Positions 2,868-31,059 of a stretch of DNA of 32,000 nucleotides are shown here, piece after piece; positions within the stretch are counted from its first letter, which is position 1; each line of letters opens with the position of its first letter. The position numbers and the translations under genes are program-made. The stretch is from Flavobacteriaceae bacterium (GTDB lineage: Bacteria > Bacteroidota > Bacteroidia > Flavobacteriales > Flavobacteriaceae): contig OZ245049.1 in the NCBI GenBank assembly GCA_965224465.1, forward strand, positions 3,150,001-3,182,000, in the 5' to 3' direction. Under the pieces are notes generated by a model. It did not search any database. It had not been told where the DNA came from and was given only the letters and a program-made list of their open reading frames with translations.

Positions 2868-3037
2868 TTAAAACAGCTTTAACGTTTTTAACTAATTTTA
2901 ACCTAATTACTGTAAATGAGTGTTTTATCTTCTTTTTTGAGCTTGTTTTATAGCGGAATTATGTCGTCTTTTTATAGCAATTCATGGGTTTTAGGTTTTC
3001 GTATAAGTACTTATTTGGAAGCCTATTACGTTCTTTT

Positions 3038-4773
3038 TTAATCCAATAATTCTTTTTTAAATATATAGTTTTTAAAATCTACTTTATACAATAGACTATA
3101 AATAGAAGGTATAAATAATAAGGTGATAATAGTTCCAAATAGCAAGCCTATCATAATGGTTACAGCCATTGGTTCCCACATTGCCCCGCCGCCAAGGTAT
3201 AAAGGAACTAAACCTAATACAGTGGTAAAAGTGGCTAATATAATAGGTCTAAATCGTTGTAAACAAGCTGAGATAATGGCGTCTTGTGGCGTACGTTTTA
3301 ACTCTTTTTCTTCTATTTCGATCCTATCTACCAGTACAATTGCATTATTTATGACAATCCCTGCCAAAGAAATAACGCCTAAAAATGCCATAAATCCAAA
3401 AGGGACTCCGAAAATTAATAAACCTAGCACCATACCAATTACACCTAACGGAATGGTTAACACAATCATGGTCATTTTTCTAAAGGAATTATACTGAATG
3501 ATTAATAGCATCACAATTATAAATCCGGAAAGGGGTAGGTATTTAGCAACTGCTCCCATGTTTTCAGCACTACTTTCGGCATCACCTCCCAACGAATAGG
3601 TATATCCATCACCCCATTTTTTCTTCTGTTCTTCTAGCCAAGGTGTAACTATTGAACTGATCTCATTGGCGTTTCCGTTTTCTGTTAACTGGCTTTGAAT
3701 GTTGATAGTTCGAGTTAGATTTAACCGTTTAATTTTAGCGTATTGCCACTGGGGAATAATTTTGGCGACTTGTAATAAAGGCACACTATTCCCAGAGCTT
3801 TGTGAAAATATGTTTAGTGATTCTAAGGAAGCTAATGATTGTTCTTTACTAGCTTCACTTCACTTAACATTACAATTGGAATTGATTTATCTCCTTCTCT
3901 AAATTCACCTGCCTGAAAACCATCCAAAACTGTTTGTAAGGATGTTGCAATATCTTGATTTGTAATTCCAGCTGCTTGGGCATTGTTTTTATTTATTGCA
4001 ATTACAAATTTTTTCCCTTTTGGTCCCCAATCATCTTTGATGTTTTTTGTGTCAGCAATACTGAATAGTTTTACTTTTATAGATTCTGATATTGCAGCTA
4101 ATTTATCTGGATCTTTTCCTGACACTTTCACTTCAATATGTGTGCCTCCTCCTCCAGCTCCTAACAAACCTACTTTAATTTCAGCATTGGGAAAGGTGTT
4201 GAAGCAAAATGCATCAAGTTGTTTGATCATCTCGTTATTTACTAGAAAATCGGTTGTATTCACCAATATATGTGCGTAATTAGAATTTGCTTCGTCAGCA
4301 TTGTACCCGAGGTCATATGTTGAAGGTCCTTTTCCAATATAAGAAGACCAGTCTACAATCCCATTCTTTCTATCAGTGTCTATTTTTAAATGGTCTTGAA
4401 TAAACTTTTCAATGGCTAAAACAGTGGCAGTAGTACTTTCTATTTTTGTTCCTTGAGGTAAATTAACATCTATGGTAATCATGTTCCTATCACTAGGTGG
4501 GGAAAATAAAACGTCTAAATAATTGAATCCTAAAATGGATAAAAAGAACAAGGCTACAATGCCAAACAATACTGTTTTTTTTCCATGAAAGCGCCCATAA
4601 AATAAGGCCTTTGTACTTTTCTTTCATTAAGAATATCATCCGATCCAAGCCCTCCGGTTTCTTGTCTTTTTTTATGTCAATTTTCAATAAAAACACACAA
4701 AATAAAGTTATAATACTCAAGGAAATTACCCAAGATGATATTAAGGCAATTGAAATAAAGCGTTTGTGTGATG
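3038..4773 (-). pseudogene. efflux RND transporter permease (AcrB/CzcA family), 5'-truncated and twice frameshifted
   Basis: Three track ORFs (3038..3784, 3832..4569, 4493..4789) are consecutive pieces of one RND permease: a TM6-like ALISSWVISLSIITLFCVFLLK, then FSPPSDRNMITIDVNLPQG, then GIVINNAIVLVDRIE and RFRPIILATFTTVLGLVPL. The frames rejoin if one A is removed from the A8 run (plus-strand T8 at 4575-4582) and one copy of the tandem TTCAC TTCAC (3854-3863) is removed. About 470 N-terminal residues are missing. Confidence 0.85.
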
Positions 4774-4840
4774 CCAAATACATTTCCAAGTGAAGGTTTA
4801 GAAAACAACCTATTTATATCGGTCAGTTTGGATTGTGTGG
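4774..4840 (-). repeat. MITE-like repeat, copy F (67-bp mini-copy, the two ends joined)
   Basis: The reverse complement reads CCACACAATCCAAACTGACCGATATAAATAGGTTGTTTTCTAAACCTTCACTTGGAAATGTATTTGG. That is the 5' end plus the 3' end of the full copies at 16509 and 19859. Confidence 0.75.
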
Positions 4841-4929
4841 TATTATTTAACAATTCGGCCACCATTAACTAACATCCAATTAACCATTAGTTTACATAGG
4901 AGTCTGTTCTTTGTTGAAAATAGAAATAG

Positions 4930-5319
4930 ATGAAAAATTGGTTTTTTATAGGTGTGTTGCTTGTAGGCTGTCAACTGTTTTCTCAAGGACTTGATGTCTC
5001 ATTGGTCTCGGGATTTATACAGACAGGGAGTGTAAAAGGGAAGGTGTTCGATGCCAATGATGGGGATGGGCATTTGGTCTTTGCTACTGTTGTAGTTAAA
5101 GAATTAGAGCTGCAAATGGAAACAGATATAGAGGGTGCTTTTAATTTTCAGCTATCGCCTGGGCGCTATACGCTGGAGGTAAATTTTATAGGGTACCAAG
5201 AGCAGCTATTTTTAGTAGAGGTAGTTGGAGGTGACACTTCTAGAAAAACGGTGTTTTTAGAACCTTTAAAAATCCAATCAGCTCCATTGTTAGAGCCGAT
5301 TGATTCTTTTCAGTTTTAA
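4930..5319 (+). CDS. carboxypeptidase-regulatory-like (CarboxypepD_reg) domain protein; possibly the N-terminal stub of a TonB-dependent receptor
   Basis: Signal peptide MKNWFFIGVLLVGCQLFSQ, then GSVKGKVFDANDGDGHLVFATVVV...GAFNFQLSPGRYTLEVNFIGYQEQ, which is typical of the domain that precedes the plug in SusC-like receptors. Only 129 aa. Confidence 0.6.
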   Translation: MKNWFFIGVLLVGCQLFSQGLDVSLVSGFIQTGSVKGKVFDANDGDGHLVFATVVVKELELQMETDIEGAFNFQLSPGRYTLEVNFIGYQEQLFLVEVVGGDTSRKTVFLEPLKIQSAPLLEPIDSFQF

Positions 5320-5329
5320 ATAGTTTTTA

Positions 5330-5428
5330 GGCAAATGTATTTCAAGGGATCGTTCTCAAAATAGAATTGTTTAGGTTTTTTTAATGCCAAAAAAACTATT
5401 TATATCGGTTATTTTGGACTGTAATTGG
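5330..5428 (-). repeat. MITE-like repeat, copy E (99 bp, internally rearranged or deleted)
   Basis: The reverse complement starts CCAATTACAGTCCAAAATAACCGATATAAATAGTTT and ends CCCTTGAAATACATTTGCC. It fills the gap between convergent genes and ends 2 nt from the dut stop codon. Confidence 0.7.
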
Positions 5429-5430
5429 AA

Positions 5431-5862
5431 TTAGACGCCTGTACTTCCAAAACCTCCAGTACCACGCTCTGTTTCGTCAAGGGTTTCTACCAGTTTCCAT
5501 TCGGCACGTTCGTGTTTTGCTATGACTAGTTGTGCAATTCTGTCACCGTCATTCACAGTAAAATCATCATTGGAAATATTGACTAAAATTACGCCTATTT
5601 CTCCGCGATAATCTGCGTCTATAGTTCCAGGGGCATTCAAAACTGTGATTCCGTTTTTGGCTGCCAATCCGCTGCGTGGGCGTACTTGTGCTTCGGTACC
5701 TACGGGAAGTGCAATAAATAAGCCTGTTTTTATAATGGCGCGTTGCAATGGTTTTAAAACGATAGCTTCTGATATATTTGCGCGTAAATCCATCCCAGCG
5801 GAAGCTGCTGTTTCGTAGGTTGGAGTTTGGTGTTTAGACTTGTTAATTAGTTGAATATTCAT
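5431..5862 (-). CDS. dut: dUTP diphosphatase
   Basis: [31 protein letters not shown] and the C-terminal [10 protein letters not shown] motif. 143 aa. Confidence 0.95.
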
Positions 5863-5867
5863 AGTTG

Positions 5868-7322
5868 TTATTTTTTAGTGATAATGCGTATTATGTTTTT
5901 TTTTTCTTGCCAGAAAATAATCACTGAAAAAGCGATGCATAGCCCCGTGGATACCCAATAGTTCCCTCGGAAACAAAGGAAAGAAATGGCAGAAATAAGG
6001 ATAGAAGCGCTTAAGTAAATAGCGATTTTTGATAAATTATAAGATACGGGATAGTATTTTTTTCCATAGAAATAAGAGAGTGTCATCATGCATCCATAGG
6101 CGGTTAGTGTTGCCCAAGCTGCTGAAATGACTCCGTAAATTGGTAAAAACACAACATTTATGATAATTGTGATTATAGCGCCTGTTATAGAAAAGTACAT
6201 ACCATACCGTGTTTTGTCTGTTAATTTATACCAAATAGATAAGTTGTGGTAAATGCCTAAGAACAAATAGGCTAATAGTACGATAGGGACAATGGATAGT
6301 GCGCTCCAATAGTTGTGGTTGATCAACAGTTTTATAAGGTCTATATAGCTTACAATTCCAACAAAAACGAGTGCTCCAATGATTACAAAATAGTTCAATA
6401 TTTTGGCATAGGTCTCTTTGGCGTTTTTTTCTTTTGCATGATTAAAAAAGAAAGGTTCTGCTCCCAATCTAAAAGCCATAATATACAAATTCATAAAAAT
6501 AGCGAGTTTGTAAACAGCGGCATAAACACCTTCACTTTCTTTGTTTATATAATGTCCTATTAATAGTTTGTCTAAATGCTCATTAACCGTATAAGCGATT
6601 CCTGCAATTAAAATTGGCCAACCGTAGGACAGCATTTTTTTAAGTAGTTTGAAACTGAATTTAAACTTGAATTTGATTAAATACGGAATTAACAAGAATA
6701 AACAAACAGCACTTCCCAGAAGATTTGCAATAAAAATAAAGTTGATTATTTGTGTGCTATTAAATGCATCTCCTAAAAAATCTGGAATGGATATGCCCTT
6801 GTCCAATTGCAGGGGTATCCATCGTAAAAACAACAAGTTTACGAGGACTATAATTCCGACGTTTGTCAGTTTTAAAAAGGCGTATTTTAAAGGCCTGTTT
6901 GAAGCACGTAAAAGAGCAAAAGGCACCATGGCTAGGGTGTCTAAAATTAGGATTCCAACAAGTAATTTAAACTGAATAGGATTGTTTTCAAAATTAAACA
7001 ACTGAATTAATTCTGATGCAAAAATAATACTGAGCACCCCAAATAATAGCGTTGTGAAAAGGATGCTAAAAAAGGCGGTGGAGACAAGGCTGTCTTTTTG
7101 TTTTTCTTGATTGTAAAATCTAAAGAAAGCGGTTTCCATACCGTAGGTTAACAAAACGGAAAATAGTGCTGCCCAAATGTAAAAATCCGTATTTTCTGCA
7201 TAACTTTTTGGAGGTAAGGCGTCTGTTTGGACTCTGACAAGTAGAAAATTAATCACTCTTGGAAGCACGGCAGCCATTCCATAGATGATAGTGTCTTTGA
7301 AAAACTTTTTTAGAATACTCAA
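5868..7322 (-). CDS. polysaccharide/oligosaccharide flippase family protein (Wzx-like, MOP superfamily)
   Basis: 484 aa and polytopic (about 12-14 hydrophobic helices). The N-terminus [29 protein letters not shown] is typical of polysaccharide biosynthesis/flippase proteins. The stop lies 5 nt before the dut start, so the two are probably co-transcribed. Confidence 0.75.
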
Positions 7323-7346
7323 AAATGTAATGTTTTATTTAGACTT

Positions 7347-7354
7347 CAAAAGTA
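7347..7354 (-). promoter_or_regulatory. candidate -7 box (TACTTTTG on the minus strand) for the flippase-dut operon
   Basis: Plus-strand CAAAAGTA at 7347-7354 is TAnnTTTG on the minus strand, 25 nt upstream of the ATG at 7322. Confidence 0.35.
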
Positions 7355-7471
7355 CATAATATGTTTTGAATCTTGTCAAAGATCTACAAATAGATGGATT
7401 GTAAAGAGCAGATTTAAGAGCTTTGGAAAAGACTTAACATTTGTTTTTTAAGTCAATTGCTCAAGTTTTGT

Positions 7472-7479
7472 TACTTTTG
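7472..7479 (+). promoter_or_regulatory. candidate -7 box (TACTTTTG) for gpsA
   Basis: Exact TAnnTTTG match, 24 nt upstream of the ATG at 7503. Confidence 0.35.
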
Positions 7480-7502
7480 GCTATTCAAAAGGGAAATAAT
7501 AT

Positions 7503-8498
7503 ATGAAGAATGATATTAAAATAGCTGTTTTTGGTGGTGGTAGTTGGGCTACAGCCATTGTAAAAATGTTATGCGAAAATTTAAATACAGTAGGTTGGTA
7601 TATGAGAAGTCAGTACGCAATTGATTATATAAAAGAAAACGATCACAACCCTAAATATATTCCTTCAGCGACTTTTAATGTAGAGAAGTTGTATTTGTCT
7701 AGTGATATAAATCAAATGGTGCGCTATGCAGACGTGTTGATATTTGCCATTCCGTCTGCGTTTATAAAAAAGGAATTGGATAAAATAACGGAAGATTATA
7801 CTGGAAAGATTATTTTTTCTGCTGTTAAAGGGATTGTTCCAGAAACGGGGTTGATTTTGGGGGAACATTTTAATAAGTTTCAAAATATACCTCTGGATAA
7901 TATTGGTGTTATTACGGGACCTTGTCATGCAGAAGAAGTGGCAATGGAGCGACTGTCTTATTTGACCATTGCTTGTCAGGATGCTAAAAAAGCTGAAATG
8001 CTAAGCGATTGTCTCAAAAGCGATTTTATAAAAACAAAAATTTCTGACGATATTATTGGAACGGAATATGCAGCCATGTTGAAAAATATTTTTGCGATAG
8101 CCGCTGGGATTGCTCACGGTTTGGGCTATGGAGATAATTTTCAGTCGGTATTGATGTCTAATGCTATTCGTGAAATGAAACGTTTTATTAAGAAAATTCA
8201 TAAGATGAAGCGGAACATTAATAATTCGGCGTATTTGGGTGATTTATTAGTGACCGGGTATTCTACATTTAGCCGAAATCGCATGTTTGGAAATATGATA
8301 GGGAAAGGCTATACCGTAAAAAGTGCACAGATGGAGATGAGCATGATTGCAGAAGGGTATTACGCTACTAAAAGCGCCTTTGAAATCAACAAAAAAAACA
8401 AAGCCAACACTCCTATTATAAATACGGTTTATGCCATTTTGTACGAGAATAAAAATCCGAAAGATGAGTTTAAGAAATTGACAGAATTGGTGGATTAA
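7503..8498 (+). CDS. gpsA: NAD(P)H-dependent glycerol-3-phosphate dehydrogenase
   Basis: N-terminal Rossmann fold IAVFGGGSWATAIV, plus GPCHAEEV, AAMLKNIFAIAAG and EGYYA motifs. 331 aa. Confidence 0.9.
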   Translation: MKNDIKIAVFGGGSWATAIVKMLCENLNTVGWYMRSQYAIDYIKENDHNPKYIPSATFNVEKLYLSSDINQMVRYADVLIFAIPSAFIKKELDKITEDYTGKIIFSAVKGIVPETGLILGEHFNKFQNIPLDNIGVITGPCHAEEVAMERLSYLTIACQDAKKAEMLSDCLKSDFIKTKISDDIIGTEYAAMLKNIFAIAAGIAHGLGYGDNFQSVLMSNAIREMKRFIKKIHKMKRNINNSAYLGDLLVTGYSTFSRNRMFGNMIGKGYTVKSAQMEMSMIAEGYYATKSAFEINKKNKANTPIINTVYAILYENKNPKDEFKKLTELVD

Positions 8499-8624
8499 GG
8501 ACCGATGTCAATTGTATGTTGCAATGCAATATTGTAAAGTATCGTTGATGCAAGATATGCGTATTAAAGCTGTTATTCTTGATGATTCAGGACACCTGTT
8601 TTTGGCAGGTAAAAAGACAAATAA

Positions 8625-8657
8625 AAAACCTAAGCTGTAATGTCTTAGGTTTTTTTT
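8625..8657. terminator. intrinsic terminator after gpsA (bidirectional form)
   Basis: AAAACCTAAG (8625-8634), loop CTGTAATGT, CTTAGGTTTT (8644-8653), with the T run extending to 8657. An A run on the left and a T run on the right allow function on both strands. Confidence 0.7.
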
Positions 8658-8682
8658 ATCGCTTAATAGTAAGTAGTCTTAT

Positions 8683-8829
8683 CCCAAATATCGGTTTAGA
8701 AATGGAATTACTTTTTGTTTTATCTAGGTGTAAAATTTAAGGATATCCTTAAATATCGTTGTATTTTTTAACAACGCCAGCACGTAAAATAGACTATTTG
8801 TATCGGTTATTTTGGTTTTGGTATAATTG
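8683..8829 (-). repeat. MITE-like repeat, copy D (near full length)
   Basis: The reverse complement reads CAATTATACCAAAACCAAAATAACCGATACAAATAGTCTATTTTACGTGC...ATTTAAGGATATCCTTAAAT...TAATTCCATTTCTAAACCGATATTTGG. It is colinear with copies A and B, with a perfect internal hairpin and a short deletion near the 3' end. It ends 1 nt from the stop codon of the 8831..9232 ORF. Confidence 0.8.
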
Positions 8830-8830
8830 T

Positions 8831-9232
8831 CTATTTTAAAAGAACACCTCGTTTTTCTAAAAGAGGAATCATTCGTAAAGTACTTTCTTTTACGGTTCCT
8901 TTTTCAAACGAGTATCTTTTGTCAAACATTTTATGGTCGTTAAAAAATGTCACATTAAAAAAATTGGTAAGTTTTAAGAGATCTTCTTGCATCAATTCTA
9001 CTTTTGCAAATGATTTTGCAGACATAGATTCTATTTTATGGCGGAACACGGCTGTTTCTTGTAAAGTGTCCTCGTTGTATCCTTTGGATACTATCAGTAC
9101 CATATCTATTGCGGTTTCTTTGTTGTTGATGATGTATGCGTTCCAGTCATCGCATTGAAATTCTGTATTGTATTCCTTTACAATGGCCATGAATACATTT
9201 TCAACCTCGGTAATTTCAATATCTTTTTTCAT
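8831..9232 (-). CDS. hypothetical protein
   Basis: 133-aa ORF with coding-like composition. It lies downstream of and co-oriented with pheS. No motif recognised. Confidence 0.5.
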   Translation of the reverse strand: MKKDIEITEVENVFMAIVKEYNTEFQCDDWNAYIINNKETAIDMVLIVSKGYNEDTLQETAVFRHKIESMSAKSFAKVELMQEDLLKLTNFFNVTFFNDHKMFDKRYSFEKGTVKESTLRMIPLLEKRGVLLK

Positions 9233-9287: not shown

Positions 9288-10307
9288 TTAAAAAGTAGAT
9301 TTAAACTGTTGTAAAAAACGTACGTCGTTTTCGTAAAACATTCGAATATCTGGGATTTGATACAGTAACATTGCAATGCGTTCTATGCCCATTCCAAATG
9401 CAAATCCACTGTATTTTTCAGCATCAATATTGGCGTTTTTTAAAACATTTGGATCTACCATTCCGCAGCCCATTATTTCTAGCCATCCAGTTCCTTTGGT
9501 TATTTTATAGTCAACTTCGGTTTCTAGTCCCCAATAAATATCTACCTCTGCGCTTGGCTCAGTAAACGGGAAATACGAAGGTCTTAATCTGATTTTTGAT
9601 TTCCCAAACATCTCTTTTGTAAAGTACAATAAGGTTTGTTTTAAATCTGCAAAAGACACGTCTGTATCAATATAGAGTCCTTCTACTTGGTGAAAAATAC
9701 AGTGTGCACGAGCAGAAATATCTTCGTTTCTAAACACACGTCCTGGAGAGATTGTACGGATGGGTGGTTGGTTGTTTTCCATGTAGCGTACTTGAACCGA
9801 TGAGGTATGTGTGCGCAATAAAATATCTGGATCTTTTTCAATAAAAAAAGTATCCTGCATGTCTCTAGCAGGGTGGTATTCTGGTAAGTTTAATGCCGTA
9901 AAATTATGCCAGTCATCTTCTATCTCAGGGCCTTCAGAAACGGTAAATCCGATGCGAGAAAACACATCAATAATTTGATTTTTAACAATAGAAATTGGGT
10001 GACGTGCTCCTAGTTCAATAGGTTCAGAGGGTCTGGTTAGGTCGCCAAAAAATCCTTTTTGCTCATCTTTATTTTCCAATTGTTCTTTTAAAAACTGAAC
10101 TTTGGTTTCACTTTCTTTTTTAAGCGTATTTAAGGCCTGCCCAAAATCTTTTTTTTCTGCAGGAGCTACGTTTTTAAATTCAGTAAACAAATCGTTTAAG
10201 ATTCCTTTTTTACCTAAGAATTTAATTCTAAAAGCTTCAATTTCATCATTCGAAGAGGCGTTAAATGCCTTTGCTTCTCCAATTAAGGCTGTTATTTTGT
10301 CTAACAT
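9288..10307 (-). CDS. pheS: phenylalanine--tRNA ligase alpha subunit
   Basis: Class II motifs [31 protein letters not shown] and [14 protein letters not shown]. 339 aa. Confidence 0.95.
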
Positions 10308-10326
10308 TTCTATCGTAGTTAAGCGG

Positions 10327-10334
10327 CAAAAATA
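10327..10334 (-). promoter_or_regulatory. candidate -7 box (TATTTTTG on the minus strand) for pheS
   Basis: Plus-strand CAAAAATA at 10327-10334, 20 nt upstream of the ATG at 10307. Confidence 0.35.
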
Positions 10335-10439
10335 CGATTTTAAAATTATTTTATAGGATTTATCAAGGAGGAATATTTGTAATTATCTTGTGTTGATGGT
10401 ATATCTAAAAAAAACATATTAATTCCCTTTAATTTAATT

Positions 10440-10447
10440 TACATTTG
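10440..10447 (+). promoter_or_regulatory. candidate -7 box (TACATTTG) for the upstream gdh
   Basis: Exact TAnnTTTG match, 38 nt upstream of the ATG at 10485. It sits inside a small palindrome, TTACA-TT-TGTAA. Confidence 0.35.
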
Positions 10448-10484
10448 TAACGTAATTTATTAGGAATAAATAATACGTAAAATT

Positions 10485-11828
10485 ATGGAATCTAAAATTA
10501 AAGCTTTTATGGATTTGGTTGCGTCAAGAGACCAACATCAACCAGAATTCTTGCAGGCAGTGCAGGAAGTTGCTGAAACTGTAATCCCTTATATATCAGG
10601 TAAAAAGATGTATAGTGAAAAAAACTTATTACTTAGAATGGTAGAGCCCGAAAGAGTGTTAACTTTTCGTGTAGCTTGGGTAGATGATTCGGGAGAAATA
10701 CAAGTAAATAGAGGATATCGTATCGAAATGAATTCAGCTATTGGCCCTTATAAAGGAGGCTTGCGTTTTCATCCTACTGTAAATTTGAGTATTTTAAAAT
10801 TCTTAGCTTTTGAGCAAGTATTTAAAAATGCCTTAACTACTTTGCCTATGGGAGGTGGTAAAGGAGGTTCTGATTTTGACCCTAAAGGGAAAACGGACAA
10901 TGAAATAATGCGCTTTTGCCAGTCGTTTATGAGTGAATTGTTCCGTCATATTGGCCCTAATACGGATATCCCTGCTGGAGATATAGGTGTTGGGAGTCGT
11001 GAGATCGGGTATTTGTTTGGAATGTACAAAAAATTGAGAAACGAGTTTACTGGAGTTCTTACTGGAAAGGGGCTTTCTTGGGGAGGTTCTTTGATCCGTC
11101 CTGAGGCTACTGGGTATGGTACCGTGTATTTTGCACAAAGTATGTTGAAGACTCAGAAAGATTCTTTAAAAGGAAAAATAGTGACTGTTTCTGGTGCTGG
11201 AAATGTAGCGCAATACGCTATTGAAAAAGCGACAGAATTAGGAGCTAAAGTGGTTACTTTTTCCGATTCTTCGGGGTATGTATATGATGCAGATGGTGTG
11301 GATGCTGAGAAATTAGCGTTTATTATGGAGTTGAAAAACGAAAGACGTGGTCGTGTAAGTGAGTATGTGACTAAATATCCTTCGGCGAAATTTGTAGCTG
11401 GAGAAAAACCTTGGTCTGTAAAATGTGAGGTAGCATTACCCTGTGCAACTCAAAATGAAATAGACGAGAAGGCTGCTAAAGTATTAATTGCAAACGGAAC
11501 TATCTGTGTAAGTGAAGGGGCTAATATGCCTAGTGTTCCTGAAGCAGTGACCGCATTCCATAAAGCAAAAATATTATATGCTCCAGGGAAAGCATCCAAT
11601 GCTGGTGGAGTAGCAACTTCTGGATTGGAAATGTCTCAAAACTCGTTGCGTATTAATTGGACTCGTACCGAAGTAGATGAGCGCTTAAAACAAATAATGA
11701 TAGATATTCACGCATCATGTTTGAAATATGGAACTCAAGAGGATGGCTATGTGGATTATGTAAGAGGTGCAAATATTGCAGGTTTTGTAAAAGTTGCAGA
11801 TGCCATGTTAGCGCAAGGAATTGTGTAA
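10485..11828 (+). CDS. gdhA: glutamate dehydrogenase, hexameric family, NADP-type coenzyme fingerprint
   Basis: Catalytic block GPYKGGLRFHP, LPMGGGKGGSDFDPKG. The dinucleotide fold VSGAGNVAQYAIEKATELGAKVVTFSDSSG closely resembles E. coli GdhA (GSGNVAQYAIEKA...SDSSG). 447 aa. Confidence 0.9.
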   Translation: MESKIKAFMDLVASRDQHQPEFLQAVQEVAETVIPYISGKKMYSEKNLLLRMVEPERVLTFRVAWVDDSGEIQVNRGYRIEMNSAIGPYKGGLRFHPTVNLSILKFLAFEQVFKNALTTLPMGGGKGGSDFDPKGKTDNEIMRFCQSFMSELFRHIGPNTDIPAGDIGVGSREIGYLFGMYKKLRNEFTGVLTGKGLSWGGSLIRPEATGYGTVYFAQSMLKTQKDSLKGKIVTVSGAGNVAQYAIEKATELGAKVVTFSDSSGYVYDADGVDAEKLAFIMELKNERRGRVSEYVTKYPSAKFVAGEKPWSVKCEVALPCATQNEIDEKAAKVLIANGTICVSEGANMPSVPEAVTAFHKAKILYAPGKASNAGGVATSGLEMSQNSLRINWTRTEVDERLKQIMIDIHASCLKYGTQEDGYVDYVRGANIAGFVKVADAMLAQGIV

Positions 11829-11844
11829 TTTTTTTTTATAATAT

Positions 11845-11880
11845 AAAAAAAGGCTGCCTATGGCGGCCTTTTTTCTTTTC
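11845..11880 (+). terminator. intrinsic terminator after gdhA
   Basis: GGCTGCC (11852-11858), loop TAT, GGCGGCC (11862-11868): a 7-bp GC-rich stem with one G-T pair, followed by TTTTTT. An A run precedes it. Confidence 0.8.
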
Positions 11881-11987
11881 TGTGCACTTTTCTACGCTTC
11901 TTTCTTAGGAGCGGAATTCACATTATTTAAAAAGATTTCAGTTTGAAAACTAATAAATCTTACCTTGCAGAGACTAATTTCACGGAA

Positions 11988-14900
11988 ATGCAAAAAAGAG
12001 AATTGCCGAATTTAAGAACGTATGAATTTCAGGAGTTTGAATTCAATCAGCTAATGCAAAACCGCATTCAGCGAGTGTTAATTGTATGTTCTAATTACGA
12101 TTATTACGGACTGGAGGAAGATGGAAGAATCGAAGAACGTATTTTTAATGAATATACCGATTTAAACCTGAGGTATCCGCCGAGTTTTATACATGCTAAT
12201 TCTGCTAAAAGAGCATTGAAATTAATGGAGTCTCATAAGATAGATCTGATTATTACATGGCTAGACATTGAGAGTTATAAGGCGTATGAAACTGCAGAGC
12301 AGATAAAAGATGCCCATCCAGAGGTGCCTATTGCTGCCTTGAGCCACTATTCTTCTGAGTTGAGTAAAAAGCTGAAATTAGAAAAAAACGAAGTGATTGA
12401 CTATGTGTTTCACTGGAGTGGAAATGTGGATATATTTTTGGCAATTATCAAGTTGACAGAGGATCGCATGAATGCAGAAAAAGACATTAATAAGATTGGG
12501 GTAAAAGCCATTTTATTAGTCGAAGATTCCCTGCGTTTTTATTCGCGTTATATTCCATTGATCTATAAAATTATTTTAAAACAAACTCATGCTTCCATGT
12601 CTGAAGGTTTGAATGAGCACAGGCGTATGAAATTGATGCGGGGACGTCCAAAAATACTTTTGGCTACAACCTATGAAGATGGTTTGTCCTTGTTTGAGAG
12701 TTATCGATACAATTTATTAGGAGTGATTTCCGATGTGTCTTATTCAAAAAATGGAAAGCAAGATGCAGAAGCTGGTTTTATCTTTTTAAAATACGTACGA
12801 TCGTTTAAGCGGTATTTTCCTTTTTTAATTCAGTCGTCTGAAAAGAAAAATGAAAAAAAAGCATTAGAACTCAATGGGAAATTTTTATACAAGCATTCAG
12901 AGACCTTAGAAAAAGAAATTAAAAATTATATTATTAAGTATTTCTCTTTTGGTGATTTTGAATTTTGGGACCCCAATCAAATGAAAGTATTGGCAAAAGT
13001 AAATGATTTGAAAAACTTTCAGAAGGCATTGTCTTTTGTGACCGTTGAGTCTATTTCTTACCATGCCGAACGTAGTGAATATTCAAAATGGTTAAAGTCT
13101 AGGGCTTTATTTCCATTGGCAGATTTGTTTAGTGAGGTGGAGTATTACGATTTTGAGAATCCTGAAGAAATAAGGGATTTTTTGATCGATTCTATCAAGA
13201 CCTATCGCGTGTATCGTTCTCGAGGGGTAATTGCTAAATTTGATAAGAAGAGATACGATGAATATTTAGTGTTTTCAAGAATTGGTGAAGGCGCTTTGGG
13301 TGGAAAAGGACGTGGATTGGCTTTTATCGATTCGTTTCTAAAACGAAATAAATTGTTTAGTAAGTTTAAGGATGTTACCATTTCTATACCGCAAACCGTG
13401 GTGTTGAGTACAGAGGTTTTTGATGAGTTTATGGATACTCACGATTTGATTCAGTTTGTTGCAAAAAATAATGATGATGAGCTTATATTGAAGGAGTTTA
13501 TTTCCAAATCGTTGCCAATATGGGTTCGGGAAGATATTCAGGCGTATTTAGATGTGGCTAAAAACCCTATTGCTGTGCGTTCTTCGAGTGTATTGGAGGA
13601 TTCACATTACCAGCCTTTTGCGGGGGTTTTTGCAACGTATATGGTGCCAAACACCTCTGATGAGAACATGTTGGATATGGTGTGTAATGCTGTAAAATCG
13701 GTGATGGCTTCTGCGTTTTCTCGTAGTAGTAAAGCTTATTTGAAGGCGACGTCACATTCTTTGGAGGAAGATAAAATGGCAGTTATTTTACAAGAAGTGA
13801 TTGGTAAACAATATGAAGATGTCTATTATCCAAACGTTTCTGGAGTGGCTAGATCTATTAATTTTTATCCTTTAGGAGATGAAAAACCAAAGGAGGGAAT
13901 CGCTCATATTGCGATGGGACTCGGAGAGATTATTGTAGGAGGTGGGCGTACACTTAGGTTTTCTCCTTATCATCCTAAAAAAATATTGCAATTATCATCG
14001 CCAGGAGCTTCTCAACGTGATACTCAAAAATTCTTTTATGGCTTAGATATGAATCCAGATAGCTATGTGGTTTCTATTAGTGAGACTGTAAACAAGAAAA
14101 AAATAAGCTTGAGAAAAGCAAAAAATCATGGGTCTTTAAAATTTGTAGCTTCTACGTACGACTTGCAAAACAATGTGATAAGACCAGGAGTTATGCAGGA
14201 TGGAATTCGGGTACTTACTTTTGATCATATTCTTAAATATGATACTTTTCCACTAGCGGATATTTTAAAGGAACTATTGAAAATAGGTCAGCGTGAAATG
14301 CAAAACCCTATAGAAATTGAATTTGCAATAAAGTTAGATGTTCCCAAAGGACAGCCTAAAGAATTTAGTTTTTTGCAAATTAGACCTATTGTAGAAACGG
14401 CAGCTGAGGTAAGTATTGTGCCAGATGATATTGATACTAAAGATACTATTATTTATTCTGAATCTGCCTTGGGTAATGGGAAATACGAAGGGATTGTTGA
14501 TTTTGTATATGTAAAACCAGATACTTTTAATGCAGCAAATACACGTCAAATTGCATTGGCAGTGGAGCAAATGAATAAAAAGTTTGTGGATTCGGGTAAA
14601 AATTATGTACTGGTAGGTCCTGGGCGTTGGGGCTCTAGTGATCCATGGTTAGGAATCCCTGTGATTTGGCCGCAGATTTCAGCAGCAAAAGTAATTGTAG
14701 AGGCTGGATTACATGATTTTAGAATAGATCCTAGCCAAGGGACTCATTTTTTTCAAAATCTAACCTCGTTTAAAGTTGGGTATTTGACCATTAACCCGTT
14801 TATAAATGATGGCTTTTTGGATATTGATTATTTAAATGAACTTGAGGCTGAATTTGAGGATGAGTTTATCCGTCATGTGCATTTTAAAACACCACTTAGT

Positions 14901-15020
14901 ATTTTGATAGAAGGAAGTAAAAACAAGGCGGTTATCTTTAAAGAAGGAGTGGAAATAAAGAAGAAAACAGAGAGTTTGGAAGAATCTATTGATGAATTGC
15001 CGCCAGAGGGATTTCTCTAA
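11988..15020 (+). CDS. two-receiver / PPDK_N-type (PEP/pyruvate-binding, ATP-grasp) domain protein of unknown function
   Basis: The track ORF starts at TTG 11943. The first ATG is at 11988 (MQKRELPNL), which I prefer. Numbering below follows the track.
- Residues 44-175: receiver-like but degenerate. IVCSNYD replaces the acidic pair and DYVFHWSG replaces the conserved Lys.
- Residues 188-320: canonical receiver. LLVEDS, GVISD (Asp264, nt 12732-12734), FLIQSS, FLYKHS.
- Residues about 446-800: PPDK_N-like. GGKGRGLAF, IAVRSSSVLEDSHYQPFAGVFATY, MAVILQEVIG.
- C-terminal block: GPGRWGSSDPWLGIPV...DPSQGTHFFQN.
No GGxTSHAA swivel motif is present. Confidence 0.8.
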   Translation: MQKRELPNLRTYEFQEFEFNQLMQNRIQRVLIVCSNYDYYGLEEDGRIEERIFNEYTDLNLRYPPSFIHANSAKRALKLMESHKIDLIITWLDIESYKAYETAEQIKDAHPEVPIAALSHYSSELSKKLKLEKNEVIDYVFHWSGNVDIFLAIIKLTEDRMNAEKDINKIGVKAILLVEDSLRFYSRYIPLIYKIILKQTHASMSEGLNEHRRMKLMRGRPKILLATTYEDGLSLFESYRYNLLGVISDVSYSKNGKQDAEAGFIFLKYVRSFKRYFPFLIQSSEKKNEKKALELNGKFLYKHSETLEKEIKNYIIKYFSFGDFEFWDPNQMKVLAKVNDLKNFQKALSFVTVESISYHAERSEYSKWLKSRALFPLADLFSEVEYYDFENPEEIRDFLIDSIKTYRVYRSRGVIAKFDKKRYDEYLVFSRIGEGALGGKGRGLAFIDSFLKRNKLFSKFKDVTISIPQTVVLSTEVFDEFMDTHDLIQFVAKNNDDELILKEFISKSLPIWVREDIQAYLDVAKNPIAVRSSSVLEDSHYQPFAGVFATYMVPNTSDENMLDMVCNAVKSVMASAFSRSSKAYLKATSHSLEEDKMAVILQEVIGKQYEDVYYPNVSGVARSINFYPLGDEKPKEGIAHIAMGLGEIIVGGGRTLRFSPYHPKKILQLSSPGASQRDTQKFFYGLDMNPDSYVVSISETVNKKKISLRKAKNHGSLKFVASTYDLQNNVIRPGVMQDGIRVLTFDHILKYDTFPLADILKELLKIGQREMQNPIEIEFAIKLDVPKGQPKEFSFLQIRPIVETAAEVSIVPDDIDTKDTIIYSESALGNGKYEGIVDFVYVKPDTFNAANTRQIALAVEQMNKKFVDSGKNYVLVGPGRWGSSDPWLGIPVIWPQISAAKVIVEAGLHDFRIDPSQGTHFFQNLTSFKVGYLTINPFINDGFLDIDYLNELEAEFEDEFIRHVHFKTPLSILIEGSKNKAVIFKEGVEIKKKTESLEESIDELPPEGFL

Positions 15021-15086
15021 TGTTTTTGTTGTAGAATTCGTGATTTAAATGAGTGAAAATTACGGCTATTACCATAAAATAATATT

Positions 15087-15094
15087 AAGTTTGT
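15087..15094 (+). promoter_or_regulatory. candidate -7 box (TAAGTTTG) for the downstream gdh
   Basis: Exact TAnnTTTG match, 62 nt upstream of the ATG at 15156. Confidence 0.35.
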
Positions 15095-15155
15095 AGAGCG
15101 TTAAATGGCAAGTCGTGTTGCTTTTTGATTGAACACAAATTTATACGAAATTATT

Positions 15156-16493
15156 ATGAATGCAAACGAGATAATAAATAATTTAGAAGCCAAACATCCT
15201 GGTGAAAAAGAGTATTTACAAGCAGTACATGAGGTTTTAGAATCAATAGAGACTGTGTATAACGAAAACCCTCAGTATGAGGCTGCTAAAATTATTGAGC
15301 GATTGGTAGAACCAGATCGTATTTTTACTTTTAGGATTTCCTGGATGGATGATGCGGGGAATGTAAATGTAAATATAGGGTACAGAGTCCAATTTAACAA
15401 TGCAATTGGCCCTTATAAAGGTGGCTTGAGATTACACCCAAGTGTAAACTTGAGTATTCTTAAGTTTTTAGGTTTTGAGCAAATATTTAAAAATGCCTTA
15501 ACTACCTTACCAATGGGTGGAGGTAAAGGAGGTTCTGATTTTAATCCTAAAGGGAAATCAGACAACGAAATTATGCGTTTCTGTCAAGCGTTTATGTTAG
15601 AATTATGGCGCGTTATTGGCCCAAATACAGATGTTCCTGCTGGGGATATTGGAACTGGTGGACGTGAAATTGGTTTTATGTACGGTATGTATAAAAAACT
15701 ACAACAGGAAAATGCTGGTATTCTTACAGGTAAAGGATTGAATTGGGGTGGTTCTTTGATTCGTCCAGAAGCAACTGGTTTTGGAGCAACGTATTTTGCA
15801 AATCAAATGTTGACCTATAATAAAGATACTTTTAAAGGTAAAACTGTGGCTGTTTCTGGATTTGGAAATGTGGCTTGGGGGGTTGCTTTAAAAGTAACAG
15901 AACTCGGCGGTAAAGTCCTAACTATTTCTGGTCCTGATGGTTATATCTATGATAAAGATGGGTTAGATGCAGATAAAATTGATTATTTATTAGAATTAAG
16001 AGCTTCTAATAACGACATCGTTTCTCCATTTGCTGAGGAATTTCCTGAAGCCGTTTTTGTAGCAGGTAAAAAACCTTGGGAAGTGAAATGTGATATTGCG
16101 ATGCCAAGCGCAATTCAAAACGAATTAAATGGTGATGATGCAAAATTATTGATTGCAAATGGATTGAAATATGCTGTGGAAGTTTCGAATATGGGTTGTA
16201 CGCCTGAGGCGATAGCTGCATTCCATGAAGGGCAAGTGCCTTTTGCTCCTGGTAAAGCTGCAAATGCTGGAGGAGTTGCAGTTTCTGGTTTGGAAATGTC
16301 TCAAAATGCCATGAAGTTAAACTGGTCTAAAGAGGAAGTGGACGAGAAACTTAAAGTGATCATGACTTCAATACATGAGGCTTGTAAAAAATACGGTACA
16401 CAGGAAGATGGATTTGTTGATTATGTAAAAGGAGCAAATATTGCTGGTTTTATTAAAGTGGCAGATTCTATGTTAGATCAAGGAGTGATTTAA
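15156..16493 (+). CDS. glutamate dehydrogenase, hexameric family, NAD-type coenzyme fingerprint
   Basis: The track starts at TTG 15129. The in-frame ATG at 15156 (MNANEIINNLEAKHPGEKEYLQAV) aligns with the N-terminus of the other paralog. The catalytic block is the same as in gdhA. The dinucleotide fold is VSGFGNVAWGVALKVTELGGKVLTISGPDG, as in Clostridium symbiosum-type NAD-GDH (GFGNVAW...SGPDG). Confidence 0.9.
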   Translation: MNANEIINNLEAKHPGEKEYLQAVHEVLESIETVYNENPQYEAAKIIERLVEPDRIFTFRISWMDDAGNVNVNIGYRVQFNNAIGPYKGGLRLHPSVNLSILKFLGFEQIFKNALTTLPMGGGKGGSDFNPKGKSDNEIMRFCQAFMLELWRVIGPNTDVPAGDIGTGGREIGFMYGMYKKLQQENAGILTGKGLNWGGSLIRPEATGFGATYFANQMLTYNKDTFKGKTVAVSGFGNVAWGVALKVTELGGKVLTISGPDGYIYDKDGLDADKIDYLLELRASNNDIVSPFAEEFPEAVFVAGKKPWEVKCDIAMPSAIQNELNGDDAKLLIANGLKYAVEVSNMGCTPEAIAAFHEGQVPFAPGKAANAGGVAVSGLEMSQNAMKLNWSKEEVDEKLKVIMTSIHEACKKYGTQEDGFVDYVKGANIAGFIKVADSMLDQGVI

Positions 16494-16672: not shown

Positions 16673-16701
16673 AAAAAAGCAGCCAATTTGGCTGCTTTTT
16701 T
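16673..16701. terminator. bidirectional intrinsic terminator
   Basis: A6, GCAGCC (16679-16684), loop AATTT, GGCTGC (16690-16695), T6. It lies between convergent gdh (+) and the MORN-repeat gene (-). Confidence 0.8.
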
Positions 16702-24215: not shown

Positions 24216-25805
24216 TTAAATAGTTGATGGTTTTTTTTGGTTTGGAAGTGTGAAATTAAAAGAGGTGCCTTTTTTTAATACACTCTCCACCCAAATTCTT
24301 CCTTGGTGTTTTTCTATAAAATCTTTGGTTAGAATTAAGCCAAGTCCTGTTCCTTTTTCTCCATGAGTACCTGTGGTTTTATGAATGTATTCATAATTAA
24401 AAAGTGTTGCAATGCGCTCCTTAGAGATTCCTATTCCATTGTCAGATATTTTTATAATTAGCTCGTTATTTGTATTTGTACATGAAAGCTCTATGCGGCT
24501 GTTTTTGTGACTGTATTTGATGGCGTTTGATATTAAGTTTCTCAAAATTGTATTGAGCATATCTTTGTCTGCAAAGACTTCTAAATGATTGTTTTGTAAG
24601 GCGGTTTTTAGTTCTATTCCCTTGTGCATAGATTGGTATTTTAATACTTGTAACACGGTGTTAAATGCTTCTGAAATTCGAATATTTTTTGGCTCAAAAG
24701 GAAGGCTCCCTTTTTGCACTTGGGTCCATTCTAAAAGGTTTTGTAGCAAGTTAAAGGTGTTTTGAGAAACGTTTTTTATGATTTCTACAGATTCTCTTAC
24801 TTCAGGATCTTCGAGAACTGTCTGATCTTCAAGGAGTAGGTTGCTGAATCCAATTAGAGAATTAAACGGGCCTTTTAAATCATGTGCTATGATAGAAAAA
24901 AACAAATCTTTCGAGATGTTTAGCTCTTGTAAATCTTTGGTTATTTTTTTGTTGATAAAAAGGCTTTTTCGAAGCTCTTTTGTCCTGTTTTCTACGGTTG
25001 TTTTTAAGTGTAATATGGTTTCTTTTTTAAGCTGTAATGCCGATCGGATGATTAATCCAATGGTTACGATGATTAGGATCAGTGCGATTGAGGCTAAAAT
25101 TATAATTCTTTTAATTTTATGTTCCAAGTTGGATCGCTCCGTATTGGTTCTTAGTTCTATAAGTTCATATGCCTTATTAAGTTCTATCATTATTAGTGTT
25201 GTCTGACTATGGTAATGTTCAGAATTCACCAATTCGATGGCTGTTTTTTGATTTAGAATAGCGTCGTAGACCTGTTTTCCTTTTTGATTTCCATCTAGAA
25301 TATAAAATGCTGCTATTTCTAAATGTGTTAATGTTAGCGAATAATTAACAGCTTGTGTGATTATTTCTCCTTCTTGCTTTGTAAAACCCGCGGTAGCTAT
25401 GAGTTTTGATGTTGAGTTTTTAATTTTTTTAATAAATGGAGGTTCTTGATGGTTTTTTGTTGTTAGTAAACTCCAATATACACGGTTAAAATGTTGAGGT
25501 CTAGGAGATGTTCCTTTTCTTATATTTAGTATTTCAAAGTATTGGTTTCTGTACAGTGTATCCTTTGTATTGGTGTATAATCTAGCCAATCGTGTTAGGT
25601 TTTCAGAATTTTGACGGATTTCGTTTATTACTTTTTCAGACTTAAAAGTGTTCTTGGCTATTTTAGAATAGGTGTTTTGTTCTTGGTATATTTTGTAAAA
25701 AAAAGAAATGATAGCAAAAATAAATAGTCCTAGAAAAAGAATCTTAGAGATTAATTTCAGGTATACATCTTTATGGAATTTGAATTCAAGGCTTGTTGTT
25801 TTCAT
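24216..25805 (-). CDS. sensor histidine kinase (HisKA + HATPase_c) with an extracytoplasmic domain of about 190 aa
   Basis: Two TM segments (about residues 22-44 and 233-256). H-box FFSIIAHDLKGPFNSL, N-box LRNLISNAIKYS, G-boxes DNGIGI and GTGLGL. 529 aa. Confidence 0.9.
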   Translation of the reverse strand: MKTTSLEFKFHKDVYLKLISKILFLGLFIFAIISFFYKIYQEQNTYSKIAKNTFKSEKVINEIRQNSENLTRLARLYTNTKDTLYRNQYFEILNIRKGTSPRPQHFNRVYWSLLTTKNHQEPPFIKKIKNSTSKLIATAGFTKQEGEIITQAVNYSLTLTHLEIAAFYILDGNQKGKQVYDAILNQKTAIELVNSEHYHSQTTLIMIELNKAYELIELRTNTERSNLEHKIKRIIILASIALILIIVTIGLIIRSALQLKKETILHLKTTVENRTKELRKSLFINKKITKDLQELNISKDLFFSIIAHDLKGPFNSLIGFSNLLLEDQTVLEDPEVRESVEIIKNVSQNTFNLLQNLLEWTQVQKGSLPFEPKNIRISEAFNTVLQVLKYQSMHKGIELKTALQNNHLEVFADKDMLNTILRNLISNAIKYSHKNSRIELSCTNTNNELIIKISDNGIGISKERIATLFNYEYIHKTTGTHGEKGTGLGLILTKDFIEKHQGRIWVESVLKKGTSFNFTLPNQKKPSTI

Positions 25806-26353: not shown

Positions 26354-27106
26354 ATGATAAGAGCCGTAATTATTGATGATGAACAAGTCAATATAAAATT
26401 GATAGCACGATTGTTAAAAAACAATTGTATGTCTGTAAATATTCTGGGTGTTTCAAATACAAAAGAAGAAGCAGTTAACCTAATCAATCAAGTGAGTCCA
26501 AACCTTATTTTTATGGATGTTAATTTGGATGCTTCTCATACTGGATTTGATGTATTGGAAGAAATTAATTCGTTAGATGCTAAGGTGATCTTTGTGACGT
26601 CTCATAACGAGTTTGCCATTAAAGCATTTGATTATAATACCATTGCTTATTTGGTGAAACCAATAGTAAAAATGGATTTGATTGTAGCTGTCAATAAGGC
26701 CATTCAGGAAATTGAAGATAAATCGTATACCAAAAACACCCAGTTACAAAGTCTTCGAGAGAGTTTGAATTCTGATGTCCGCCAGATTATAGCGGTTCCT
26801 ACAGTAAGAGATATAGAATTAATAAAAGTAAAAAACATTATTTATTTGTCTTCGGATAGTCGTTATACTCATTTTTTTATAAAAGGGGGGAAACATATCA
26901 TTTCGTCTAAAAATTTAGGGAAATATGAAAACTTAATCAGTGGAAATTTCTTTAGAATTCATGCCAAGTATTTTGTAAATGTAGATTATTTACACAAGAT
27001 ACATAAAGAGGTCGGTTCGTCTTATTGTGAAATGGAGACAGGTGATTTATTGACAATATCTCAACGTAAATATTCAGATTTTATGAAGTATTTACGTTTG
27101 AAGTAA
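26354..27106 (+). CDS. LytTR-family response regulator
   Basis: Receiver residues are intact: IIDDE, FMDVNL, VTSH, LVKPI. C-terminal LytTR region IIYLSSDSRYTHFF...FFRIHAKYFVNVDYL. 250 aa. Confidence 0.9.
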   Translation: MIRAVIIDDEQVNIKLIARLLKNNCMSVNILGVSNTKEEAVNLINQVSPNLIFMDVNLDASHTGFDVLEEINSLDAKVIFVTSHNEFAIKAFDYNTIAYLVKPIVKMDLIVAVNKAIQEIEDKSYTKNTQLQSLRESLNSDVRQIIAVPTVRDIELIKVKNIIYLSSDSRYTHFFIKGGKHIISSKNLGKYENLISGNFFRIHAKYFVNVDYLHKIHKEVGSSYCEMETGDLLTISQRKYSDFMKYLRLK

Positions 27107-29981: not shown

Positions 29982-30344
29982 ATGCACGAGATATTTTTAG
30001 TTCGAAATACCTTCCAAAGAATTGAGGAGGAATTTCCGGAAAAGTTTGAAAGAATTTCTGAAATACATTTAAAAGTTGGCTTATTGAGTAATGTCCAACC
30101 CATTTTAATCACCAATGCCTTTAACGCATTTGTGATGGAGTTCCCACAGTATTACAATACTCAATTGATTGTAGATACGCTTCCCGTGATAATAGCGTGT
30201 ACCTGTGGGGCTAAAACGGAAGTAAAAAAGAATCGTTTTGTCTGTAAGAGTTGTGGTAATTCTTGTAAAAATATCATTCAAGGCGAAGAATTATATATAA
30301 ACGAAATAAAATTTTTTAATAAAAATGAACACGAAGAAACCTAA
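29982..30344 (+). CDS. hypA: nickel insertion metallochaperone HypA
   Basis: Starting at ATG 29982 gives the conserved MHE N-terminus (MHEIFLVRNTFQRIEEE), which is the Ni site. A cysteine cluster ACTCG-N13-CKSCGNSC forms the Zn site, followed by GEELYINEI. The track start at 29958 adds 8 residues before MHE. Confidence 0.8.
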   Translation: MHEIFLVRNTFQRIEEEFPEKFERISEIHLKVGLLSNVQPILITNAFNAFVMEFPQYYNTQLIVDTLPVIIACTCGAKTEVKKNRFVCKSCGNSCKNIIQGEELYINEIKFFNKNEHEET

Positions 30345-31032: not shown

Positions 31033-31059
31033 ATTAACTAAACTAAAAACAAAATTTTA

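Follow-up and report, generated by a model that had tools for sequence, protein, structure and literature searches.

What does a protein of about a thousand residues, built like a response regulator joined to a dikinase, do between two genes for glutamate dehydrogenase (GDH), the enzyme at the junction of carbon and nitrogen metabolism? The question is raised by a stretch of 32,000 nucleotides from a Flavobacteriaceae bacterium (assembly GCA_965224465.1, contig OZ245049.1, positions 3,150,001 to 3,182,000), analysed as a whole and called the window below. Three open reading frames (ORFs) with ATG starts lie there in one orientation: gdh1, the gene of the protein that we call X, and gdh2 (447, 1010 and 445 amino acids; Table 1). 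A first-pass annotation of the window had described three co-oriented genes in this order, with about 1010 residues for the middle product, and both the reading frames and their lengths were confirmed. A widely conserved gene module, in which a GDH gene stands beside a gene for X, is present here in its fullest form. The gene link of the X family to GDH suggests a candidate, so far undescribed, control device at the carbon/nitrogen junction.

GDH genes are the commonest neighbours of X in both sets of loci that were compiled. The first set contains 79 loci, one genome per species and mostly from Bacteroidota, in which all neighbouring ORFs were clustered. The second set contains 80 metagenomic loci (GC content 28-70%) chosen by similarity to P0260, the most distant full-length member of the X family, to which they are 31-42% identical. 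In the first set the GDH cluster was observed in 26 of 81 loci, the earlier loci included, followed by korA and korB with 10-11 loci. GDH is adjacent to full-length X in 19/77 species-level Bacteroidota genomes of this set and lies within 6 kb in 23/77; among loci whose flanks reach 3 kb or more on each side, the fractions are 11/36 and 14/36. The GDH cluster of the second set occurs in 45 of 83 loci (the next cluster in 8), and a GDH gene is adjacent to full-length X in 38/79 loci and within 6 kb in 46/79, most often directly upstream of X in the same orientation (27 cases).

The gene-neighbourhood count suggested in the first-pass annotation thus had a positive outcome, X homologues being linked to gdh far above chance both in Bacteroidota and in distant lineages. 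One explanation would be inherited synteny without functional meaning. Many X loci have no GDH, and the separate transcription units described below would also agree with it. However, the pairing recurs in DNA with GC contents from 28% to 70%, and neither the order and strand of the genes nor the class of GDH nor the flanking genes are the same throughout. By our own estimate, the chance of finding a gdh gene in an interval of about 15 kb is about 1%, given one or two such genes per genome of a few Mb, whereas 30-58% of the full-length X loci of the two sets have GDH within 6 kb. We consider inherited synteny very improbable. The link is frequent and recurrent, not universal.

The GDH genes adjoining X are of three kinds, with fingerprints of the GSGNVAQY..SDSxG type, with fingerprints of the GFGNVAWG..SGPDG type, or from a short class of about 420-428 amino acids. 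In all Flavobacteriaceae of the first set the NAD-type gene is directly downstream of X. The NADP-type gene is found upstream of X in Lutibacter, Gaetbulibacter and Polaribacter-like loci and is absent in Gillisia. The outer flanks vary by genus and the gdh-X-gdh core persists. Two GDH genes bracketing X, the arrangement on which the first-pass annotation centred, are confined to some Flavobacteriaceae, whereas most relatives pair X with one GDH of any class.

Other neighbours encode enzymes close to the same reaction. In 10-11 Bacteroidales loci X has korA and korB, the genes of a 2-oxoacid:ferredoxin oxidoreductase, directly upstream, and the order in locus L025 is korB-X-gdh. Tandem duplication of X is frequent in Bacteroidales: L014, L017, L023, L033, L037 and L040 (about positions 3000-8950 of each) contain two paralogs. 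The upstream copy, about 35% identical to X of the window, follows korA-korB. The downstream copy, 50-54% identical and thus the orthologue, precedes an NAD-type gdh where one is present. This placement of the copies beside korAB and gdh, respectively, suggests one X paralog per partner enzyme in Bacteroidales. A gene for a further enzyme that uses glutamate, the glutamate racemase gene murI, is found upstream of korA-korB-X in L018, L029 and L035, also from Bacteroidales, possibly by coincidence. An nfnA/nfnB-like pair (domains FAD_binding_6 with DHODB_Fe-S and Fer4_20 with Pyr_redox_2) stands beside gdh-X in L095, L118, L124, L159, L167 and L091, following it in 5-6 loci, and suggests that NAD(P)H and ferredoxin are balanced around GDH. 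Taken with korAB, these neighbours indicate the 2-oxoglutarate node.

A second gene of the PPDK_N family, recognised by a partial tblastn match to X, is found directly downstream of X in L088 (positions 10012-13275), L091, L092 and L137, and possibly in L094 and L120, where the ORF calls do not separate it cleanly. In L088 it overlaps the stop codon of X and encodes 1087 amino acids with, as checked in this locus only, a C-terminal fusion to an NTP_transf_2/Polbeta nucleotidyltransferase domain. The order of the cluster there is gdh-X-X', the GDH being of the short class.

Both outer proteins of the window contain the domains ELFV_dehydrog_N and ELFV_dehydrog (Pfam, E 1e-51 to 1e-89). The product of gdh1 scores 757 bits on the NCBIfam model PRK09414 (cutoff 536) and that of gdh2 824 bits on PRK14030 (cutoff 743). 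By domains and curated cutoffs, both belong to the hexameric GDH class of about 450 amino acids. They are 62% identical as proteins and 69% identical as DNA, the longest identical DNA run being 22 nt, and are therefore the result of an old duplication or of separate acquisition. This agrees with the first-pass annotation, which had regarded them as diverged and not recently duplicated; the long shared motif that it quoted is present in both proteins.

The coenzyme fingerprints of the two enzymes differ, at exactly the places where they had been reported. That of gdh1 (nt 11193-11276, translated as GAGNVAQYAIEKATELGAKVVTFSDSSG) reads GAGNVAQYAIEKA...FSDSSG, and that of gdh2 (nt 15858-15941, translated as GFGNVAWGVALKVTELGGKVLTISGPDG) reads GFGNVAWG...ISGPDG. 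Of the structures in PDB, gdh1 is matched best by E. coli GdhA (4fcc, E 7e-182), which reads GSGNVAQYAIEKA...ASDSSG, and gdh2 by the GDH of Clostridium symbiosum (1bgv, E 3e-160), which reads GFGNVAWG...LSGPDG; the same two likenesses had been noted before. Mutation of F238, P262 and D263 in the C. symbiosum enzyme lifts its efficiency with NADPH more than 100-fold (PMC3157743), so the Phe and Pro-Asp named earlier as specificity-swap residues are indeed these. Compared with 1bgv, gdh2 keeps F, P and D at the three positions; gdh1 has A, S and S, and E. coli GdhA S, S and S. We predict that gdh1 is NADP-type and gdh2 NAD-type, fingerprints being imperfect predictors of GDH coenzyme specificity (PMC3157743).

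The family of the middle protein is large. A word-indexed search gave more than 7990 matching proteins, and an exhaustive search, clustered at 50% identity, gave 4806 clusters with E ≤ 1e-3, 1086 of them with E ≤ 1e-30; most are of about 1000 amino acids. Homologues of 1009-1013 amino acids are 73-91% identical to X. Residue conservation was counted over 116 aligned, diverse members of the family, and receivers were assigned by hhalign profile comparison with real receivers. Two of them were found in the N-terminal part. The second, REC2, aligns with a probability of 94.6% (E 7e-8), D249 falling on the acceptor Asp. The residues E179, D180, D249, S283 and K302 are each kept in 87-96% of the members, so that X has the acidic pair, the acceptor Asp, the Ser/Thr and the Lys of a receiver through REC2. 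This copy of the receiver was not detected by Pfam in X of the window. The first, REC1, aligns with a probability of 96.5% and is aspartate-less: its acceptor position is W91 in X and Met in most family members, and the Pfam Response_reg scores (23.5-27 bits) are below the cutoff. The linker that follows resembles DUF5752: of 36 family members, 21 have a Pfam match to it (best E 4.9e-7), and the fragment from X of the window, with 22.9 bits, comes just under the cutoff of 23. The combination of receiver and ATP-grasp read in the first-pass annotation is thus recovered, the former by hhalign and the latter by Pfam (PPDK_N, Table 1).

The ATP-grasp domain has intact catalytic residues, GGK440, R531-S-S-S, E537-D538, E778 and Q797 being invariant in the family alignments. 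It aligns with residues 24-234 of E. coli PpsA (hhalign probability 97.4%). The sequence-profile search of PDB retrieved rifampin phosphotransferase (RPH, E 1.5e-10) and phosphoenolpyruvate (PEP) synthases. For residues 425-1010, an AlphaFold2 model from a deeper alignment (predicted local distance difference test, pLDDT, 79) was compared by Foldseek, and the only significant PDB matches were RPH (3e-12), HpeI (1e-9) and pyruvate phosphate dikinase (PPDK). A full-length model from a shallow alignment was poor (pLDDT 58) and was set aside. By PDB profile and Foldseek the domain is closest to kinases of the RPH/HpeI type; the NCBIfam matches of X include PigC/RedH. As judged from its sequence, X is a receiver protein with a dikinase-type ATP-grasp.

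Several sources name the homologues "phosphoenolpyruvate synthase", and PPDK_N is present, as it would be if X were a genuine PEP synthase serving gluconeogenesis from glutamate carbon. The N-terminal ATP-grasp of PpsA and PPDK is homologous to that of X, with the GGK and RSS..ED motifs in common. However, X has no match to the PEP/pyruvate TIM barrel (PF02896) in the Pfam searches and is therefore not a PEP synthase. Nor does it have the swivel domain of PpsA and PPDK (PEP-utilizers, PF00391), and it ends about 200 residues past the ATP-grasp. The best PEP-synthase model covers residues 474-667 only and gives 68.9 bits, far under its cutoff of 883. The database name is wrong, and with the domain content refuting it, the chance that X makes PEP is negligible.

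The C-terminal domain is conserved and lies directly 3' of the ATP-grasp. H920 is present in 114 of 116 family members, as [ST]-H920, and G879/R880 in 115 of 116. The AlphaFold2 model is confident in this domain except for the histidine loop, and [ST]-H920 is at the start of a helix. The domain is placed like the His carrier of dikinases, and its predicted order of strands and helices may be read as similar. Assignment to the PEP-utilizers His domain was rejected. Pfam gave no PEP-utilizers match in 36 family members at E ≤ 1, and none for the isolated C-terminus of X even at E ≤ 10; hhalign probabilities against the His domains of E. coli PpsA, PtsI and PtsA were below 1%; and the PDB profile search showed no homology to this domain. 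Phosphorylation of H920 is therefore hypothetical, and the C-terminal domain is a candidate phospho-histidine carrier.

The relatives of the ATP-grasp suggest one alternative function. RPH-type kinases are described as working by the chemistry of dikinases, the ATP-grasp being followed by a His carrier (PMC4844700). RPH-Lm (5hv1, 5fbs), HpeHI, PigC and RedH, the best profile and fold matches of this domain of X, act on small molecules. X could likewise be a receiver-gated small-molecule dikinase, which phosphorylates or activates a metabolite linked to glutamate or 2-oxoglutarate and so makes or destroys an effector. A shared metabolite would fit three unrelated GDH classes, korAB and nfnAB better than a protein surface would, and the DUF5752-like domain could bind a ligand. 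On the other hand, the known enzymes have a small-molecule-binding domain and a swivel His domain, neither of which was detected in X; between its ATP-grasp and its His-bearing domain there is no large substrate-binding domain like that of RPH. These enzymes also have no receiver, whereas X carries receivers. No candidate substrate can be named, and VadK, as described, demonstrates that the PPDK lineage can act on proteins. We regard a small-molecule substrate as rather unlikely, though it is the strongest of the alternatives.

VadK (Rv1127c) of Mycobacterium tuberculosis is the closest parallel to the function that we propose. [quoted passage not shown] Like X, it is of the PEP-synthase/PPDK lineage and, by that description, no longer takes part in PEP/pyruvate interconversion. 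Its logic, His autophosphorylation and binding of the enzymes of one pathway, is the logic proposed here for X and GDH. There are differences: the partners of VadK belong to the methylcitrate cycle, X carries two receivers at its N-terminus, a domain type that the description of VadK does not mention, and the C-terminal domain of X has no PEP-utilizers match.

The reading that we prefer has, in our estimate, a probability of about one half. It states that phosphorylation of D249 gates the ATP-grasp, that His920 is loaded, and that X acts post-translationally on GDH or at the 2-oxoglutarate node. A histidine kinase would phosphorylate Asp249 of the second receiver, and the first, aspartate-less receiver would be a dimerisation or docking unit. 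The ATP-grasp, once released by Asp249, would use ATP by dikinase chemistry to load His920. Charged X would then act on the adjacent GDH or GDHs, or on another enzyme of the 2-oxoglutarate node, for example KorAB, by phosphotransfer or by nucleotide-dependent binding, in parallel to the described action of VadK on the methylcitrate-cycle enzymes. Lying between an NADP-type and an NAD-type GDH, X could set which of them carries the glutamate/2-oxoglutarate flux, and it is plausible that in these Flavobacteriaceae it decides which isoenzyme is active. The first-pass annotation had likewise proposed that the middle protein could set the flux direction at this node; its labels of an assimilatory and a catabolic GDH are putative. 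The reading starts from the gene order, the domain make-up, the conserved residues of receiver and ATP-grasp and the GDH, korAB and nfnAB neighbourhood, all of which are observed; the phosphorylation of His920, the target and the direction of control we infer. In a bolder version, which is possible and is offered tentatively, X would be the first representative of a widely distributed group of protein dikinases (or phospho-His donors) that are gated by a signal and turn GDHs on or off.

The source of the phosphoryl group on Asp249 bears on a further alternative. In L098, L107, L108 and L110 a PAS-HisKA_3-HATPase kinase and a response regulator are encoded between one X copy and gdh-X, and this kinase may be the cognate partner of X. 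Kinase genes are found beside X in few loci only, and most X loci have none nearby. X might then be a self-contained phosphorelay, from His920 to its own Asp249, or a sensor of ATP/AMP, with the GDH linkage reflecting co-regulation only. A His-bearing domain and a canonical receiver are indeed on one chain, and VadK is termed a histidine kinase in its description. However, the PAS-HisKA_3 kinase beside X in some loci speaks for an external donor, N-terminal receivers are usually inputs, and such a relay would have no evident downstream partner. A self-contained relay appears improbable.

Several observations weigh against the proposed action of X on GDH. GDH is missing from the 6 kb around X in about 40-60% of those sampled loci that have good flanks. 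None is found near three distant X members, which stand in unrelated contexts, in L084 (with a TRAP transporter and a PALP enzyme), L086 and L087. The involvement of three GDH classes argues that the link may as likely be to the reaction or its metabolites as to one protein surface. The C-terminal His domain has no detectable homology to PEP-utilizers, and the case for phosphorylation of H920 consists of its position and invariance. No kinase gene adjoins X in the window, where a HisKA kinase is encoded 9 kb away. Finally, gdh1, X and gdh2 appear to be separate transcription units.

The last point follows from the signals between the genes. The -7 promoter consensus of Bacteroidota is TAnnTTTG, and matches to it were read directly upstream of gdh1 and gdh2 (Table 1). 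The element of gdh2 is kept (TATTTTTG, TAATTTTG) upstream of this gene in all Flavobacteriaceae relatives examined. A possible promoter of X lies at 11961..11968; a motif of the TATCTTGCA type occurs just upstream of X in L004, L006 and L007. The strong intrinsic terminator predicted after gdh1 has counterparts, a hairpin followed by a T run, in the Lutibacter and Gaetbulibacter loci L001, L004, L006 and L007. With a terminator after gdh1 and promoter-like elements of their own for X and gdh2, the genes would therefore form three adjacent units and not one operon. The terminator scan gave no terminator in the interval between X and gdh2, and read-through from X into gdh2 is possible. A scan for sigma-70 promoters gave no more than shuffled sequence would (24 against 24.3 expected) and was disregarded; the Bacteroidota motif, read by eye, was used instead. 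Neither Rfam nor tRNA scans gave a match in the window, and the cluster is thus without a known riboswitch or leader. The hairpin downstream of gdh2 stands between this gene and a converging minus-strand ORF of 137 amino acids and is terminator-like on both strands.

Table 1. Features of the gdh1-X-gdh2 locus, in coordinates of the window
Feature	Position	Strand	Description and evidence
-7 promoter-like element of gdh1	10441..10448	+	TACATTTG, match to TAnnTTTG, 37 nt 5' of the gdh1 ATG; read directly
gdh1	10485..11828	+	hexameric-class glutamate dehydrogenase, 447 amino acids, NADP-type fingerprint GAGNVAQY...FSDSSG
Candidate intrinsic terminator 3' of gdh1	11846..11874	+	13-bp stem, 6 GC pairs, T run; terminator scan
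Possible promoter element of X	11961..11968	+	TACCTTGC, within a motif kept 5' of X in relatives
X	11988..15020	+	1010-amino-acid response-regulator and dikinase-like protein; database name "PEP/pyruvate-binding domain-containing protein"
REC1 of X, residues ~27-160	12066..12467	+	aspartate-less (pseudo) receiver; hhalign, alignment columns
REC2 of X, residues ~172-320	12501..12947	+	canonical receiver, D249 codon 12732-12734; hhalign, alignment columns
DUF5752-like linker of X, residues ~321-420	12948..13247	+	domain family of unassigned function; weak Pfam match
ATP-grasp of X, residues 436-807	13293..14408	+	PPDK_N nucleotide-binding domain; Pfam E 1.6e-38
C-terminal domain of X, residues ~810-1010	14415..15017	+	conserved; GPGRWG[ST]xD (877-885), SxG[ST]H920FF; H920 codon 14745-14747
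-7 promoter-like element of gdh2	15086..15093	+	TAAGTTTG, match to TAnnTTTG, 62 nt 5' of the gdh2 ATG; read directly
gdh2	15156..16493	+	hexameric-class glutamate dehydrogenase, 445 amino acids, NAD-type fingerprint GFGNVAWG...ISGPDG
Hairpin 3' of gdh2	16673..16701	.	A-run, GCAGCCA-ATT-TGGCTGC (7 bp, GC-rich), T-run; read directly, absent from the terminator-scan list

The domain combination of X has been catalogued before. A survey of response regulators lists a class "REC + pyruvate phosphate dikinase", termed "Bacteroides-like" and seen also in Heimdallarchaeota bins (Galperin 2018, PMC5847659), and aspartate-less receivers are reported to be enriched with PPDK output (Maule 2015, PMC4395418). 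X has the combination of the former, as catalogued, and its REC1 fits the enrichment described in the latter. The passages of the two surveys that list this architecture give neither a function nor a gene context. What is newly documented here is the cross-phylum link to GDH. Full-text searches of a literature library, itself incomplete, gave no paper tying an X-type protein to GDH, and nothing relevant came up for PPDK_N combined with a response regulator, for DUF5752 or for the reversible inactivation of GDH in Bacteroides fragilis.

Post-translational control of GDH and of enzymes consuming 2-oxoglutarate occurs in other bacteria, through GarA/OdhI with PknG in Actinobacteria and through a subunit of Thermus GDH homologous to adenine phosphoribosyltransferase (APRT). 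These are phosphorylation-dependent or nucleotide-sensing accessory proteins. X is unrelated to the forkhead-associated (FHA) domain, the Ser/Thr kinase and the APRT fold of those systems, which have neither two-component input nor an ATP-grasp. Bacteroidota are known to have two GDH isoenzymes that differ in coenzyme and in their regulation by the nitrogen source, in Bacteroides GdhA (NAD(P)H) and GdhB (NADH). To our knowledge, a receiver/ATP-grasp gene has not been reported between or beside their genes. The region BT1970-BT1973 of Bacteroides thetaiotaomicron, considered as a possible case of the arrangement seen in the window, was dropped, as BT1971 is a catalase.

Some other features of the window were observed. 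A minus-strand ORF of 133 amino acids (8831-9232) is conserved and syntenic in L001 (6776-7177), L009, L011 and L012 and has no Pfam or NCBIfam match; it adjoins pheS in Lutibacter and is directly upstream of X in Gillisia. Two minus-strand ORFs, 3038-3784 and 3832-4569, match consecutive parts of the AcrB/ACR_tran profile (positions 534-765 and 788-1020 of 1021), as would be expected if an RND efflux-pump gene were broken or the assembly contained a frameshift. The HisKA kinase mentioned above is at 24216-25805 on the minus strand, and a LytTR response regulator is encoded at 26354-27106 on the plus strand. Genes for HypA, a HypB/UreG-like GTPase and a urea transporter (29958-31977, plus strand) are related to nitrogen, at a distance of about 14 kb to the cluster.

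Through the census, an uncharacterised family of thousands of proteins, mis-annotated as PEP synthase, becomes a candidate regulator of the GDH node, with D249, K440 and H920 as the residues singled out in X and the NADP-type GDH, the NAD-type GDH and KorAB as partner enzymes. No mechanism of post-translational GDH control in Bacteroidota, gut and marine species included, is known to us. If the proposed action of X is correct, X would extend the VadK type of PPDK-derived regulatory kinases by a two-component input. In the bolder version, X might also account for old reports of reversible in vivo inactivation of GDH in Bacteroides. Many Bacteroidota and members of other phyla would then possess a post-translational nitrogen/carbon switch unrelated to PII/GlnD, to GarA/PknG and to ADP-ribosylation.

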